Assembly: GCA_963663965.2 (NCBI GenBank)
Contig: CAXXFK010000035.1
Coordinates: forward strand, 1-64,000
Source: Sedimentisphaerales bacterium
GTDB lineage: Bacteria; Planctomycetota; Phycisphaerae; Sedimentisphaerales; SM23-30
Length of the DNA: 64,000 nucleotides
Reading direction: 5' to 3'
Part shown: piece after piece, positions 1,000-37,698 of the stretch
Numbering within the stretch: position 1 is the stretch's first letter
How the letters are laid out: each line of letters opens with the position of its first letter
The notes under the pieces: model-generated
Seen by the model: the letters and a program-made list of their open reading frames with translations, nothing else
Told to the model about the DNA's origin: nothing
Database searches by the model: none
Translations under genes and position numbers: made by a program

Positions 1000-1068
1000 C
1001 TTATCACCATCACCACAAATCTTCTAACAGGCATAACACTATGCAAAACATTCCCAGCCACATTCTTT

Positions 1069-1224
1069 TTCCGTGTCTTTCCGTGTTTTTCCGTGGTTAT
1101 ATCTTCTTATATTTTAACAACTTAACTAAGTTTTTATCTGCGTCCATCTGCGATGAAACCGGCTATTATATTTTTTTATCTCTCCGGCTATTCCTCCACT
1201 CCCTTCACTTACTACACGGTGAAA
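1069..1224 (+). repeat. Three short tandem-box groups (TTCCGTG x3, ATCTGCG x2, CTHCAC x3)
   Basis: TTCCGTG at 1069/1079/1089; ATCTGCG at 1136/1146; CTCCAC/CTTCAC/CTACAC at 1194/1203/1212. Confidence 0.55.
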
Positions 1225-1268: not shown

Positions 1269-1297
1269 TTGACTATTATTAAAATTCAACCTATAAT
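1269..1297 (+). promoter_or_regulatory. Sigma-70 type promoter of ORF 1359..2144
   Basis: TTGACT-N17-TATAAT. Confidence 0.7.
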
Positions 1298-1358
1298 CCC
1301 AACAGTCGGCCGCCAACGGTCAAACTCAAAACATTACTAAGGTTTAAAGGAGGCTCCC

Positions 1359-2144
1359 ATGAATCGTTCCATGCAAATTCTCGCCCGCGCCCAATACTAC
1401 CACCGCCCCGAAATCGATGACATTTTCCTCGCCACCATCAACACCACCCGCCGCCAACACCAGTACATCATCGACACCTACCCTTACCACTGCGAACTGG
1501 CCGGCCTGATCGCCTACGATCGCCGCGACTATAAACTCCGGGCCACCCGGGCCGGCCACCAGGCCCTCCAGCGCCTCGTCGTCCAGTCCCGCTCCGACAA
1601 CACCATCACCGCCCGCCGCGCCACCACCCAACTCATCCAGCAATTCATAAAAATCACCGATCCCATCAAAGACCTCATCCCCGAAGGCCCGCCCAATGAC
1701 AAAGAATACCAGCAGATTATCGACAATTGCAAAAACATCCTCTTCGACGCCGGCTACCAGATCACCCCCGCCATCCAGTGCGACCCAAACGCCACCCCCG
1801 AACCAGGCCAACAACCCGAAACCCCACCAATACCAAACGAACCCAAAGTCGGCAAATTCAACCATAACACAAACAATAACAAAAACTTAGAAACAAACAA
1901 TCCAACCCATAACAACCACCGCAACCCCAACTCCCAGCCCGACAATTTCCAACCCGATCCACGGAATCCAACCCCCCATCAATACACCCCCAACCACTCC
2001 AACTACCCCTCAACGCCAAACGAACCCAACATCAACAATTACAACTATAACCACAATTATAACAATGACTTAAAACCATTCACGCCGACAGAAAATTCCC
2101 AGGAAACCCCAACCGACACCACCCTCCAATGCCGTCACTACTAA
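1359..2144 (+). CDS. Hypothetical protein with a P/N/T-rich low-complexity tail containing PNEP repeats
   Basis: AAGGAGG RBS, upstream promoter, 261 aa, strongly C-rich and G-poor coding strand. Confidence 0.7.
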   Translation: MNRSMQILARAQYYHRPEIDDIFLATINTTRRQHQYIIDTYPYHCELAGLIAYDRRDYKLRATRAGHQALQRLVVQSRSDNTITARRATTQLIQQFIKITDPIKDLIPEGPPNDKEYQQIIDNCKNILFDAGYQITPAIQCDPNATPEPGQQPETPPIPNEPKVGKFNHNTNNNKNLETNNPTHNNHRNPNSQPDNFQPDPRNPTPHQYTPNHSNYPSTPNEPNINNYNYNHNYNNDLKPFTPTENSQETPTDTTLQCRHY

Positions 2145-2275
2145 AACGCAGGGCAACCATCGCCCGCGCTGATCAAACCAAGCCATGAGCACAGCGAATA
2201 CCAGCAGAAGCCCAGAATCCAAACGAACCCATCGAAAGAAAGAAACCATATAAACATAGCGATGCCAACCTGTTG
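1833..2275 (+). repeat. Array of 3 composite sites CCAAACGAACCCA-N19-TAA-N19-TTR
   Basis: Boxes at 1833, 2016 and 2219; TAA at 1865, 2048 and 2251; 25-mers end at 1889, 2072 and 2275. Confidence 0.8.
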
Positions 2276-2445: not shown

Positions 2446-4110
2446 GTGCCTACTCTCTACTTACTCCAGGGATCGGACAAGGGTCACTCGTTCGATATCA
2501 ACAACACCCCGGTTCTCCTGGGCCGTAACAGCCCGGATGTGCCGTTGACTGATAATACGGTTTCAAGACGTCACGCCGAACTGATCCGCAAAAAAAATGG
2601 TACCTGGGTTATCCGTGATCTGAACTCCGCCAACGGCACTTATGTCAACGGTATCAAACTGTCCGGCTTTATCGAACTCAAACCCGGCGATCAGATCCGT
2701 TGCGGCGCGACCCTGATTGTTTTTGGCAATATCCCATCAGGAATTATGGGCGAACCAGGCGGCCTGCATATCGATGAAAACGGCAATCTGGTCGAATCAT
2801 CCATCATGGCCACTGTCCCCACCATGGATGACTCCGTCATTATTGCCGGCCCCGAAACCTCTAACGCGATCGGCAACCTGCGGTTACTTTATGAACTCTC
2901 CACGGCGATCAGTACCATCTTCGATCGGCCCCAGATGCTCAATAAAGTCATGGACATCATTTTCGATAACCTGCCTGCGGACCGCGGCTTTATCCTGCTG
3001 GCCGAAGATAACGCCGATAAAATCGACAGCAAAAACCTCAAACCCATCGTGGTTCGATATCGCGATAAAGAACAGGAACTTAAAATCACGGTCAGCCATA
3101 CGATAGTCGAGCATGCCATCAGCAACAAAGAAGGCGTCGTCTGCACCAATGCCATGCGTGACCCGCGATTCGCCAGTGGCGAGAGCGTGCAGCATTACGG
3201 CATCCGATCGGCGCTCTGCGCCCCGATTACCGTACGAAACGAAATCAAAGGGGTGATCTATGTCGATACGACCATGGCTACCCATACCTATGCCAATGAA
3301 CAACTGCAACTGCTCACCGCAATTGGATACCAGACCGGTATGGCGTTGGAACATGCCCGCCTTTACGAAACCGGTATTCAAGCCGAACGTCTGGCAGCAG
3401 CCGGTGAAACAGTTGCCTATATCTCCCACGGCATTAAGAATATTCTCCAGAGCCTGCAAGGCGCTGCCGACATGGTCGAGATGGGCCTTAAACGCAATAA
3501 AGTTGACCTCGCTCAAAAAGGCTGGGGGATTCTGCAACGGAATCTGACCCGCGTGCAAAACCTGGTTCTCAATATGTTGGCGTTCAGCAAGGCGCGCCAG
3601 CCGCATCGGACCATGGTCCAGTTGAACCGGATGATTACTGAATTAATTGAAATGCTCAGCCAGCAGGCGCAGGAAAAAAATGTCGGCCTCTTTACCGACC
3701 TGGACGATCAACTCCCGGCCATCGCAGTAGATCCTGACGGCATCGAACAGATATTGCTCAATCTGGTGCTCAATGCTCTGGATGCCGTAGAATCCAAAAC
3801 CGGGGCAATTACCATCAAAACCAGCTTCGATGCCCAGGCGCATCTGGTAGTCATCGGGATTCATGACAACGGCAAAGGAATTGCTCCGGACCAGCTCAAA
3901 TTTATTTTTCACGCGTTCCATTCCGATAAAGGCCAGGGCGGCACGGGATTGGGATTGGCCGTTGTCAAAAAAATTGCCGAAGAACACAGCGGTCGAGTGC
4001 TGGTCGAAAGCCAACCCAATGAAGGAACCACTTTCACCATTCTCCTGCCCAGCGATGCCGAAGTCACCGATAGCAGTATGACCGCCGGCCCGGGCGGCAC
4101 CCGCTACTAG
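2446..4110 (+). CDS. FHA-GAF sensor histidine kinase
   Basis: FHA motifs (LGR, VSRRHA, DLNSANGT), GAF region, H-box SHGIKN, N box NLVLNALDA, DNGKG and GTGLGL. Confidence 0.92.
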   Translation: MPTLYLLQGSDKGHSFDINNTPVLLGRNSPDVPLTDNTVSRRHAELIRKKNGTWVIRDLNSANGTYVNGIKLSGFIELKPGDQIRCGATLIVFGNIPSGIMGEPGGLHIDENGNLVESSIMATVPTMDDSVIIAGPETSNAIGNLRLLYELSTAISTIFDRPQMLNKVMDIIFDNLPADRGFILLAEDNADKIDSKNLKPIVVRYRDKEQELKITVSHTIVEHAISNKEGVVCTNAMRDPRFASGESVQHYGIRSALCAPITVRNEIKGVIYVDTTMATHTYANEQLQLLTAIGYQTGMALEHARLYETGIQAERLAAAGETVAYISHGIKNILQSLQGAADMVEMGLKRNKVDLAQKGWGILQRNLTRVQNLVLNMLAFSKARQPHRTMVQLNRMITELIEMLSQQAQEKNVGLFTDLDDQLPAIAVDPDGIEQILLNLVLNALDAVESKTGAITIKTSFDAQAHLVVIGIHDNGKGIAPDQLKFIFHAFHSDKGQGGTGLGLAVVKKIAEEHSGRVLVESQPNEGTTFTILLPSDAEVTDSSMTAGPGGTRY

Positions 4111-13233: not shown

Positions 13234-13306
<73 letters not shown>

Positions 13307-18461: not shown

Positions 18462-20343
18462 ATCGATTAGGCGGGGGCATTGCGGCCCCGGCCTCTCACA
18501 CCACCGGGCATACGGTTCCGTACCACGGCGGTTCATTTTAGCCAATCCGGCTTACCTGTCAATTCTGCAAGTGTCACTAAGTTAAGATTAGCAAAGTACG
18601 ACTTGGGGAAAGCGGCGTTCATGTGACCGGCTCCGGAGTTCCACCATGGCCCCCTGCCATTATAGGCAGACAGCGAAGCTCTTTCTTCCGATAAGCCTCG
18701 TCGCATCAGCATCTTACGCCTTGTCCACGGTCTTTTACTCTGTCGCCATTTCATGCACCGCAGCCGCCGTCGAATCCATCCGTCCAGATCTTTAAACACC
18801 AATTTAACCTCACTCTGTCGATAATATTGTCCCCAACCCCGTACCACGGGATTCAGGTCCAGACTTATAAACTTCGCCAGATTTCGGCCTCTACCTATAC
18901 GCATCAGCCTCTTTACCTTGGCCTTGAAACGTTTAACGGATTCCTTGGGGGGTTTCAGTTTCGCTTCACGGTTGATGGTAAAACTATACCCCAGAAAACT
19001 TCGGTTCCAGGGACGATCCACCGCACTTTTGGCATCGTTGAGCTTCAGTTTCAGGACGTTGCTCAGGAATCCTTTGATGGAGGCCAGAACCCGTTCGCCT
19101 GCCACTTTACTGCGGACATAGATGTTACAGTCATCCGCATAACGCACAAATTGATGGCCGCGCCTTTCCAGTTCCTTATCCAGGGTATCCAGCATAATGT
19201 TGGATAGCAACGGACTGAGAGGACCGCCCTGCGGTGTGCCTTTAACGGCCGGAGAGACCACCCCGCCTTCCAGAACACCCGCTTGCAAATAGCGTCGGAT
19301 GACGCCCAGTATACGCTTGTCCTTGACCTGACGGGCGATTTTCGCCATCAGGATGTCATGATTGACATTGTCAAAGAACTTCTCCAAGTCCATATCCACC
19401 ACCCAGCGGTGACCCTGATTGATATGGTGACGGGACTGGCACAAGGCCATGTGCGTGGAACGGTTGGGACGAAAACCATAGCTGGAGTCCGAAAACTCCC
19501 GCTCGAAAATCGGCTGGAGTACCTGGTGAAGCGCCTGCTGAATCAGGCGGTCGGTCACCGTCGGGATCCCAGGCTTACGGGTTCCGCCTTTGGGTTTGGG
19601 GATCTCTACCCGCCTGACCGGCTGGGGCTGATAGCGCCCGGCCAGCAGCTGCTGCTTGATGAGAGGCCATTGGGTTCTCAGGACTTGGGCTGTCTGGTCG
19701 ATGCTCAGGCCATCGATTCCCGCAGCGCCTTTATTCGCCTTAACCCGCTGCCATGCCTTCTGCATATTGGCAGGTTCGACCACTTGCTCCATTGAGCAGG
19801 ATGCGGTGTCGCTGATTGGTGTTGGGGCAGTTGCTGACACTTGACGCACCGAGGGCTTATCTGGGCGGTTCCGCCGCCGGCCTCCACCCTCGGCATGAGG
19901 TTCTCTCATCTGCTGCTTCTCCATGTCGGTAAGCTCCAATCTAATCAGCCACGGCTGAAATGTTCAGGCCTTCGGTCTGGTCGAACTTGCAGACCTACTA
20001 TGCCTTCTGCTGACTTCTGTATGCCCATCCCATTACCTCTTGATAATGGTAGCCGGTGGCAAACATACAGATCTCCCCGGGTAATGCACACCTGCCTTCC
20101 TGTTTATGCCCGCCGTATATACGGCCATGCCTTCCGGGCAGCTTTGGGACTTCGAAGATAATGGCCTTCTCATCCGGCATGACCGCCTCGTATACGATTC
20201 CTGTTCGTCGGGCCAACAGTTTGCCTGCGGCTTCCTTCAGACCCCACCTCACGGTGGCAGCCCTTGCCGTCCGGCTAATGGTTCCCGCTACCGGGCCCAT
20301 AGAGGACTTGCACCTCCAAGCAGGTGTGCCCTGCCGGGCACAC
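18462..20343 (-). mobile_element. Group II intron, bacterial class C (IIC), full length
   Basis: 5' GTGTG at 20343; domain V GAACCGCCGTGGTACGGAACCGTATGCCCGGTGGTG with CGC triad; domain VI ending CGAT at 18462; located about 8 nt after a terminator stem. Confidence 0.92.
18533..19939 (-). CDS. ltrA: Group II intron reverse transcriptase/maturase, no endonuclease domain
   Basis: GIDG, GIPTVTDR, SYGFRP, DLEKFFD, GTPQGGPLSPLL, YADD, FLGY, X domain. Confidence 0.96.
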   Translation of the reverse strand: MELTDMEKQQMREPHAEGGGRRRNRPDKPSVRQVSATAPTPISDTASCSMEQVVEPANMQKAWQRVKANKGAAGIDGLSIDQTAQVLRTQWPLIKQQLLAGRYQPQPVRRVEIPKPKGGTRKPGIPTVTDRLIQQALHQVLQPIFEREFSDSSYGFRPNRSTHMALCQSRHHINQGHRWVVDMDLEKFFDNVNHDILMAKIARQVKDKRILGVIRRYLQAGVLEGGVVSPAVKGTPQGGPLSPLLSNIMLDTLDKELERRGHQFVRYADDCNIYVRSKVAGERVLASIKGFLSNVLKLKLNDAKSAVDRPWNRSFLGYSFTINREAKLKPPKESVKRFKAKVKRLMRIGRGRNLAKFISLDLNPVVRGWGQYYRQSEVKLVFKDLDGWIRRRLRCMKWRQSKRPWTRRKMLMRRGLSEERASLSAYNGRGPWWNSGAGHMNAAFPKSYFANLNLVTLAELTGKPDWLK

Positions 20344-37311: not shown

Positions 37312-37558
37312 TAAAGTCAATAACCACATGCCCTTATCGCTATAATTGCCGTAAATGGCTTCGTTTGGTCACGACTACCAAACGAAAATGCAACTGAGCA
37401 CGGCTCACACCCAACACATAAAGGATTCATTTTTAATCGCACTCAAGAATAAAGCCGGCCTACAGGGCGATCTGGCATAAAACAGAACAATATTATAGTC
37501 ATATCGTATTATATATCAATGATTTATGTTATTTTTTTCATAGAATGGGTTCGTTTGG
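37312..37558 (-). repeat. Second array of composite CCAAACGAA(C/G)CCA-N19-TAA sites
   Basis: Boxes at 37546-37558 and 37356-37368 (minus); TAA begins at 37526 and 37336; 10-bp inverted repeat 37360-37386. Confidence 0.75.
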
Positions 37559-37698
37559 CAATTCACTCTATTAACGATCAAAATTAACCTGTTCATATTA
37601 AATTATCGGAGAGCGACCGTAGGGTATATTTCAATCGTTTGAGATTGTTTAAATATTGAACTGTTGGAATTATATGTCTTAGTTTTACTAACAGTCAA

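Follow-up and report, generated by a model that had tools for sequence, protein, structure and literature searches.

Promoter-headed arrays of a conserved box and an IHF-type site beside small-terminase-like genes: a possible packaging-signal element dispersed on a planctomycete chromosome

Introduction

In phage P22, the packaging (pac) site lies within the gene for the small terminase subunit (TerS), and classical gene transfer agents (GTAs) package DNA near-randomly. In the cosB region of phage lambda, the TerS sites R3 and R2 flank a site, I1, for the integration host factor (IHF) (PMC4856287). TerS proteins of staphylococcal pathogenicity islands (SaPIs) are able to work with chromosomal pseudo-pac sites (PMC6687093), and pseudo-pac sites have also been described for P22 (PMC10996546). 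Here, we analyzed a repeated DNA element in the genome of a Sedimentisphaerales bacterium of the class Phycisphaerae (GenBank assembly GCA_963663965.2, 7.24 Mb in 42 contigs, 94.6% complete with 5.4% contamination, hereafter G000), starting from a stretch of 64,000 nt (contig CAXXFK010000035.1, positions 1 to 64,000 of the forward strand), which is called the window in the following. The element combines a 13-bp box with a 25-bp IHF-type site in arrays headed by a promoter, some of which include a gene of one of two families, named A and B here; the gene in the window belongs to the TerS-like family B. The repeats belong to a cassette that is headed by a promoter and dispersed over the genome, and in our view chances are about even that it carries a pac/cosB-like signal, which would seed packaging starts on the chromosome. 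A literature search, with supplements and most subscription papers outside its scope, did not turn up any account of the motif, the cassette, or a Phycisphaerae head module.

Results and Discussion

Architecture of the box arrays

The window harbors three exact copies of the 13-bp box CCAAACGAACCCA on the plus strand, each followed after 19 nt by a 25-mer starting with TAA and ending with TTA or TTG (Table 1). This arrangement had been noticed in an initial annotation made from the sequence alone, and all its positions hold on re-check. While boxes 1 and 2 are located inside the open reading frame (ORF) at 1359-2144, box 3 lies outside of it. Based on a position weight matrix (PWM), copies 1 and 2 of the 25-mer are strong sites and copy 3 is a weak one. 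The sequences in between are indeed unrelated, since alignment scores outside the 57-bp units were 18, 12, and 13 compared to shuffle means of 20, 14, and 14. A word at 2173, previously taken as a degenerate box without a partner, does lack the partner site, but it is probably decayed or a chance match, because it has three mismatches, one of which (G>C) never occurred with a partner (0/17). A second array, gene-free and on the minus strand (37356-37558), had escaped the initial annotation.

Table 1. Features of the window (positions in nt; PWM, score of the 25-mer)
Feature	Position	Strand	Remarks
Short triple repeats (TTCCGTG-type, ATCTGCG-type, CTTCATG-type)	1066-1215		Upstream of promoter; mosaic in most family-B cassettes
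Sigma-70-type promoter TTGACT-17-TATAAT	1269-1297	+	Near-perfect, heads cassette; conserved in aligned family-B copies
Ribosome-binding site AGGAGG	1348-1353	+	From sequence
Family-B ORF, 261 aa	1359-2144	+	Residues ~1-135 putative diverged TerS-like domain; ~146-261 low-complexity tail through array
Box 1	1833-1845	+	Exact match
IHF-type TAA-N19-TTA site 1, strong	1865-1889	+	1 mismatch to WATCAANNNNTTR, right half; PWM 24.1
Box 2	2016-2028	+	Exact match
IHF-type TAA-N19-TTA site 2, strong	2048-2072	+	1 mismatch, right half; PWM 25.0
Degenerate box-like word without partner	2173-2185	+	3 mismatches
Box 3, outside ORF	2219-2231	+	Exact match
Weak IHF-type site 3 (TAA...TTG)	2251-2275	+	2 mismatches, right half; PWM 0.5
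FHA-GAF-histidine kinase gene	2446-4110	+	Directly downstream of array; own promoter-like sites 2354-2427
tRNA-Lys(CTT)	13234-13306	-	
Two Rfam group II intron domain fragments	19967-20258	-	RF01998, RF02001
Variant box, 19-nt gap, 25-mer	37312-37368	-	Box 37356-37368 (GAAGCCA); PWM 4.8
Box, 19-nt gap, partial 25-mer	37502-37558	-	Box 37546-37558; PWM 6.6
Promoter-like TTGACT-18-TATAAT	37669-37698	-	Heads second, gene-free array; best upstream match, 11/12

In the whole genome, the exact 13-mer was found in 98 copies, compared to 0.63 expected from an order-6 Markov model. At 196 de-duplicated sites with the 11-bp core of the box, the position of TAA downstream showed a sharp peak at gap 19 (66 sites, against 16 at the next best offset), and TTA peaked at gap 41 (60 sites, against 10 at the next best offset). 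Relaxed matching resulted in 179 boxes forming 103 clusters, and all 51 multi-copy clusters carry their boxes on one strand; 62 clusters were classified as strong. In general, the genome has one box per IHF-type site, and an inverted box behind the 25-mer occurred in only 1 of 117 composites. The repeat period of about 190 bp that had been proposed does not apply to the element as a whole, as spacings within clusters range from 63 to 1225 bp without a general period, and the spacing of 183 bp (10 of 76) is a property of the family-B gene copies.

The box is conserved as DNA and not as protein, in agreement with the initial annotation. When 33 single-base changes in the 11-bp core were compared for retention of the partner ends, the partner was retained with no more than two of them, namely G5>A (both ends at 25 of 71 copies) and C8>G (both ends at 20 of 48 copies). 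Since both change the amino acid in the PNEP reading, conservation is at the DNA level. A conservation of the PNEP residues was ruled out by the five synonymous core variants, of which only 2 out of 20 copies had both partner ends. Moreover, the tail of the family-B protein, which is read through the array, is under relaxed selection, with a ratio of nonsynonymous to synonymous polymorphism (pN/pS) of 0.67 versus 0.29 for the N-terminal domain (7 colinear family-B copies of 15).

The 25-bp site and a single IHF-like protein

The 25-bp site is also enriched apart from the box. Box-free TAA-N19-TTA was found 2806 times in the genome, compared to 1778-2255 occurrences at eleven other spacings, and the excess of about 770 sites lies outside long ORFs and displays a consensus that is a two-fold symmetric version of the WATCAANNNNTTR-like word, which we take to be the IHF consensus. 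Accordingly spaced half-sites were also frequent, with 36 occurrences of WATCAA-N4-TTA versus 4-6 at neighboring spacings, and WATCAA with 0-1 mismatch was present in 17 of 81 de-duplicated sites versus 2.7 after shuffling. A search for HU/IHF-family genes (PF00216) revealed a single gene in each of five genomes tested, including G000. Its product fits IHF models (E 1e-17) better than HU models (1e-7), both below the curated cut-offs, and it retains residues R42/E44/R46 (R-x-E-x-R) of IHF-beta. These residues have been named IHF-beta-specific (10.1101/2024.06.24.600358), and a table in PMC6907758 prints the WATCAANNNNTTR-like consensus in the row for H-NS, apparently swapped. The R-x-E-x-R residues probably read the TTR end of the site.

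Because of the box-free enrichment, the symmetric IHF word, and the residues of the IHF-like protein, we regard the 25-mer as most likely a bend site of general use in the host, of which the element would take advantage, and the initial view of an IHF-like bend site phased with a specific box was thus supported. A homodimer would give a symmetric site, and we are confident that the single IHF/HU protein acts in this form on the 25-bp site. The approximately 770 additional intergenic sites represent a candidate genome-wide motif of this protein, and with them the binding of an IHF-like protein made of a single subunit could be tested on a symmetric site.

Family B, a putative captured small terminase

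Family B comprises 15 loci in the genome, 14 of which bear boxes, all within box clusters. For the window ORF, no direct match was obtained in Pfam, PHROG, or NCBIfam; a word-seeded homolog search resulted in three matches, all of them copies of G000 itself, and a search of the Atlas revealed nothing above 0.78. A relation to TerS was found by way of the large terminase (TerL) loci of relatives, where an ORF of about 140 aa, belonging to one family, precedes TerL in 13 of 29 cases. Twelve of these ORFs were aligned to a profile (one near-duplicate was omitted), eight of them matching PHROG 2538 (small terminase). Compared by hhalign, this profile and family B matched with a probability of 90% and an E value of 1.7e-6. 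When 25,257 ORFs were searched with the profile, twelve family-B copies ranked third to fourteenth, the window copy with an E value of 3e-5, while the two better matches were TerS genes on islands resembling phage-inducible chromosomal islands (PICIs) without boxes. One of the 15 copies, located on contig C30 and not identical with the window copy, carries a composite site and lies about 240 bp before TerL. The family is clearly diverged, displaying a long stem in the tree, with the C30 copy being the most distinct.

Structure prediction added little to this. The family-B model (predicted local distance difference test score 71) was built on an alignment of TerS-family rows; its top matches in BFVD were TerS proteins, but with E values of at least 0.23. 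Residues 1-101 could be superimposed on phBC6A51 (2AO9), which is counted as a small terminase in PMC4737164, with a Z score of 6.6 and a root mean square deviation of 5.8 over 87 aligned residues, a match that is not significant alone and is one among many helical ones. Taken together, family B is most probably the genome's own TerS, which would have been captured into the cassette, diverged, and been amplified. Both the TerS homology of the window ORF and the promoter-headed arrangement of the arrays had been missed by the initial annotation.

As a further observation, residues ~97-130 of family B (including the window copy, 1359-1763) appear as two alleles that assort independently of the N-terminus, which suggests gene conversion among the copies.

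Promoter-first layout, orientation, and flanks

Analysis of 88 near-perfect promoters in the genome showed a same-strand box within 1.5 kb downstream for 40 of them, and an opposite-strand box for none. Likewise, 38 of the 62 strong clusters are preceded by a promoter of the same orientation that matches at 11 of 12 positions, compared to 1-3 for the other three combinations of side and strand. The cassette consists of the promoter, one ORF, and arrays only, and 33 strong solo clusters are gene-free. With respect to their strand, 76 of the 103 clusters share one orientation. Assigned to the C-rich strand, which in a draft assembly can be told from the skew only indirectly, were 13 of 14 family-B, 17 of 22 family-A, and 22 of 30 unambiguous solo clusters, and the cassettes are probably oriented head-on to replication. 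No two-block strand pattern was visible along two single-contig records (contig order unverified). The orientation of flanking genes was unbiased (12/11/5/4), without a preference for convergent intergenic sites.

One reading of this layout is that of an autoregulatory operator, in which box-bound A or B protein together with an IHF bend would loop the DNA and repress the strong promoter, packaging being uninvolved. The same-strand promoters at 38 of 62 strong clusters and the position of boxes in or beside the cognate gene would fit; however, the first box lies 68-822 bp past the promoter, often within or behind the gene, the gene-free arrays have nothing to regulate and their flanking genes no orientation bias, and the link to a promoter is weaker in other genomes (7 versus 2 of 27). 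We therefore regard autoregulation as improbable.

In regard to mobility, the flanks of the cassettes revealed no target-site duplication (TSD) and no terminal or inverted-repeat signal above mismatched pairs. Eight tyrosine recombinase ORFs were found, and none of the 62 strong clusters lies within 10 kb of one of them, though with a mean of 1.08 for random positions this test is weak. Contigs assembled from three sequencing runs contained many variant copies, but no joint skipping the cassette.

Several known types of element were rejected. A structured RNA is contradicted by the weak fold of the array (z -1.8) and the absence of an Rfam match in the region, the latter also speaking, together with spacings of 63-1225 bp, against a CRISPR array. 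A sigma-54 promoter with IHF did not fit either, as the reverse-strand box has no -12 element and the flanking genes show no orientation bias. An att site of a tyrosine recombinase was discarded based on the lack of a linked recombinase and the single inverted box among 117 composites, a trans-acting recombinase aside.

Family A and box expansions across the class

Family A (279 aa) is present in G000 in 26 full-length copies with a pN/pS of 0.08, and all 26 genes sit in box clusters. This association extends beyond the genome: in 28 further family-A loci, two viral contigs being represented besides other genomes (some loci share a genome, and several were picked from box-rich genomes), a same-strand box lies in or just behind the gene in 19 cases and an opposite-strand box in two. 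The N-terminal motif of family A, about 31 residues long, also occurs in phages, where the gene carrying it immediately precedes a P-loop ORF at 14 of 17 viral loci, and three of five P-loop ORFs tested downstream of such genes matched TerL. In fold searches, family A gave no significant match; the protein is predicted to be all-helical, and its invariant residues, by reading, form no HUH or DDE pattern. In the Atlas, it hits unnamed clusters at 0.94, and among 1208 candidates 801 matched family A, none of the best 120 of which carried a Pfam domain. Family A, with its TerS-type N-terminal motif, is rather likely to be the original box binder, which, if true, would provide a candidate function for a large unnamed protein family.

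A group of phages was observed to carry, in the gene before TerL, the N-terminal motif of family A followed by a Cys-rich segment. Two of these genes match the unnamed PHROG 26872, which may represent an unrecognised TerS family.

To compare genomes, 161 members of the class were used, kin among them not being independent. A genome was called expanded with at least 9 box matches and at least three times the number of a reversed-pattern control, a threshold chosen after the counts were known. By this measure, 11 of 161 genomes, belonging to six families, are expanded. All eleven have family A, and none of the 136 A-negative genomes is expanded (Fisher p 1e-10, inflated by kinship). Genome G458 (10 versus 19) was dropped, and G397 (6 versus 0) and G460 (5 versus 2), both without family A, remained below the threshold.

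These counts also bear on the initial reading of the repeats as an arm-type and IHF site for a tyrosine recombinase, or as a chromosome-organising array in the manner of KOPS or matS. Though the IHF-type site was confirmed and the strand bias of the clusters (76/103) would be in line with it, we consider this very improbable. The recombinase or cassette-acquisition variant found no backing in the flanks, with none of the 62 clusters near one of the 8 recombinase ORFs found and no TSD or inverted-repeat signal. A housekeeping role in chromosome organisation fits poorly because the box is expanded in only 11 of 161 class genomes, being absent or rare in the other 150, and the two single-contig records lack a two-block strand pattern (contig order unverified).

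A different function would be anti-phage packaging interference, where strongly expressed TerS-like proteins, together with decoy sites, would block or divert the terminase of an infecting phage. Near-consensus promoters, purifying selection on many copies (pN/pS 0.08 for A, 0.29 for the B domain), and the fast divergence of family B would suit such a defense, and a system targeting terminase, TerI, exists (10.1101/2025.02.27.640495). However, one or two copies would be enough for this purpose, yet there are about 40 gene copies plus gene-free arrays with a rigid IHF geometry; TerI, moreover, is prophage-encoded and accompanied by immunity proteins (10.1101/2025.02.27.640495), for which no search was made here. 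Altogether, packaging interference seems quite unlikely.

Large terminase and head genes of the host

G000 encodes a TerL of 489 aa on contig C30 (PHROG 2, E 3e-12), the homologs of which carry PF17289 and, where named, come from Sedimentisphaerales and other planctomycetes. TerL was identified in 33 of 41 relatives, nearly always as a single copy, and in 21 of 22 high-quality genomes. A genome search with PHROG 2 overlooked the TerL that hmmscan finds, so that blank results of such searches carry little weight. On the same contig, 72 kb from TerL, a portal gene is clustered with the gene for the major head protein and a short ORF that probably encodes a scaffold; each of them occurs once, and their synteny is conserved in three other genomes. 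The portal gene was present in five of five genomes, that of G000 matching PF05133, while PF06074 and PF04860 (portal) as well as PF05065 (capsid) were not found in G000. The major head gene was detected in 98 of 161 class genomes and in all 23 other sampled genomes of the order. Head module and TerL are thus split over two loci, without phage replication genes beside them as judged by ORF lists, and judging from genes alone they look like a domesticated GTA-like system. An apparently undescribed head-and-terminase system of this kind would extend across Phycisphaerae.

Further observations concern these loci. The head module (G000:C30:195449-205170) includes, behind the genes named, five unannotated ORFs and is conserved across the order. 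In several relatives, TerL is preceded by genes for an ABC-type ATPase, an acetyltransferase-like protein, a ParB-like protein, and TerS, the middle two labels deriving from reading of the sequences, and two unrelated opposite-strand genes are inserted in the gene run upstream of TerL in G000 (C30:122206-130282). In several class genomes (G353:C69, G356:C106, G451:C6, G439:C41), the major head gene is split into two parts separated by 1.5-40 kb, which suggests that elements have inserted into it. Finally, two related PICI-like islands of G000 (C22:87000-93000 and C24:2000-8700) harbor an integrase, an AlpA-like gene, and a TerS of the same family, but no boxes, and the one on C24 additionally a primase-like gene.

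The composite site in other lineages

A scan for the composite site in 14 of 64 parts of the GTDB collection resulted in 107 loci, 69 of them planctomycete by record title. These 69 are uniform, with a gap of 24-25 in 62, C at position -2 in 58, and further same-strand boxes in 63, while the 38 other loci display scattered gaps, C in 8, and a second box in 2, as chance predicts. The common planctomycete form is box-24-IHF site-30-box, in near-identical units of about 90-100 bp; one lineage has box-24-site-24-inverted box. The strict composite pattern was found in only two of 301 genomes of the phylum, G000 and G035. Carriage by viruses was rejected, since the 21 matches in IMG/VR were AT-rich, single, and chance-like.

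Such units are also what one would expect from a selfish interspersed element, which would spread within the cell without packaging: with A bound to the boxes and the DNA bent by IHF, the unit would be copied by an enzyme of the host or acting in trans, in the manner of REPINs with their REP-associated tyrosine transposases (RAYTs) or of miniature inverted-repeat transposable elements, the likeness to TerS being mere ancestry. Expansions that are patchy, differ between lineages, and go along with family A but not with capsid genes, the many gene-free arrays (33 strong solo clusters), the near-identical box-IHF-box units of other planctomycetes, and the bias for the C-rich strand all agree with it. 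The missing TSD or terminal repeat signal, the non-palindromic box, the weak RNA fold of the array (z -1.8), and the predicted all-helical family A without HUH or DDE pattern do not, and capture and amplification of the genome's own TerS would be left unexplained. This explanation is therefore unlikely, but less so than the other alternatives named above.

The packaging signal weighed

In the packaging reading, to which we give about even weight, a TerS-like oligomer would bind the conserved box while a host IHF-like dimer bends the adjacent 25-bp site, as IHF does in lambda cosB between R3 and R2. The bent complex would recruit TerL, either of the domesticated head system of the host or of a passing phage, and TerL would start packaging there, so that the cassette and the chromosomal DNA downstream of it are packaged preferentially. 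A transfer bias toward the cassette, which carries both reader and signal, would then let the element spread.

Several results weigh against this reading. The mechanism leaves the insertion of a new copy at a new place unexplained, and it is derived from sequence, the claims on binding, cleavage, particles, and expression being predictions. Though repeated and oriented boxes in or beside a TerS gene were found as in pac and cos sites, they are missing from the cognate TerS-TerL locus of relatives or phages: in 26 of the 29 TerL loci of relatives, which were examined for this, the 1.5 kb around TerL contain no exact copy of the box, so it did not serve as the host system's ancestral pac site. 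The PICI-like islands with a TerS of the same family are likewise box-free, and among the 21 composite matches in IMG/VR none had a TerL, A, or B match to our queries. Expansion of the box does not follow the capsid gene, the head gene being present in 8 of 11 expanded genomes and in 98 of the 161 genomes as a whole (p 0.53). Of the 25 genomes with family A, 14 lack an expansion, and genome G337 has 50 boxes without a family-A or head match to the queries used. The gap between box and 25-mer is rigid within a lineage, but free between lineages, and because it varies (18, 19, 24, 25, 27), the helical phase is not kept across them; some lineages even have boxes without the 25-mer. As for the proteins, the helix-turn-helix region of family B is heavily altered and its stem very long, family A has no convincing match in PHROG or NCBIfam (best E about 1e-3), and the 14 motif-bearing phage genes share about 31 residues only and look like one related group. 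The TerS proteins of SF6 and SPP1, finally, read bent DNA with little sequence specificity (PMC4737164).

A more specific proposal, which we put forward tentatively and with somewhat less than even confidence, is a new minimal selfish element of a promoter, a TerS gene, and an IHF-phased pac-like array, with gene-free derivatives, that would parasitise capsid-mediated DNA transfer. In this lineage, it would have captured and multiplied the TerS of the host's domesticated packaging system, which is common to the order. An undescribed planctomycete GTA-like system would thereby have become site-directed, with packaging starting from about 60 oriented sites. If true, a family of interspersed repeats is able to carry packaging signals, along with the genes that read them, through a chromosome without an integrase or transposase of their own, and such repeats would steer which host genes travel in particles.

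Comparison with known systems

Like the element, lambda cosB combines a short, specific box with an IHF-type site at a constant distance and has a TerS-like gene alongside, and the box-IHF-box order, direct or inverted, recurs in other planctomycete lineages. Differences are the chromosomal location in tens of clusters instead of a phage genome, mostly one box per IHF site, and a cosN-like symmetric cut site, for which no counterpart was found here. The pac sites of SPP1, SF6, and P22 are similar in that asymmetric, oriented boxes are directly repeated within the TerS gene or next to it. In contrast to the largely sequence-independent TerS of SF6 and SPP1 (PMC4737164), however, the box is strictly conserved here and paired with a probable host bend site, and the unit is multiplied without TerL.

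As with SaPI and other PICI TerS proteins and their pseudo-pac sites, a non-phage TerS would redirect a foreign TerL, and the sites are oriented and scattered over the chromosome. Unlike these islands, the cassette possesses no integrase, excisionase, or primase, and its sites are perfect, clustered, promoter-headed, and IHF-phased instead of chance look-alikes. With promoter, one ORF, and arrays as its only parts, and no recombinase within 10 kb, a PICI or phage satellite was rejected. GTAs are comparable in regard to the host TerL, portal, and head genes, which are single-copy, vertically conserved, and, judged by genes alone, split over two loci; here, though, specific sites would bias initiation, and the head gene is dispensable to expansion in 3 of 11 genomes.

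Repetitive extragenic palindromic (REP) sequences and bacterial interspersed mosaic elements (BIMEs) with RAYT are similarly interspersed in hundreds of copies, with IHF recruitment and a cognate gene nearby. In our case, the box is non-palindromic, the arrays are co-oriented without a preference for convergent intergenic sites, and the partner is TerS-like and not HUH. Membership in the REP, BIME, or REPIN class was consequently rejected, there being no palindromic stem-loop (fold z -1.8) and the partner genes being A and B instead of RAYT. Altogether, by the proposed mechanism, the element would work like a pac/cosB signal combined with a satellite-type TerS, and it stands outside the PICI, REP, CRISPR, and att classes.

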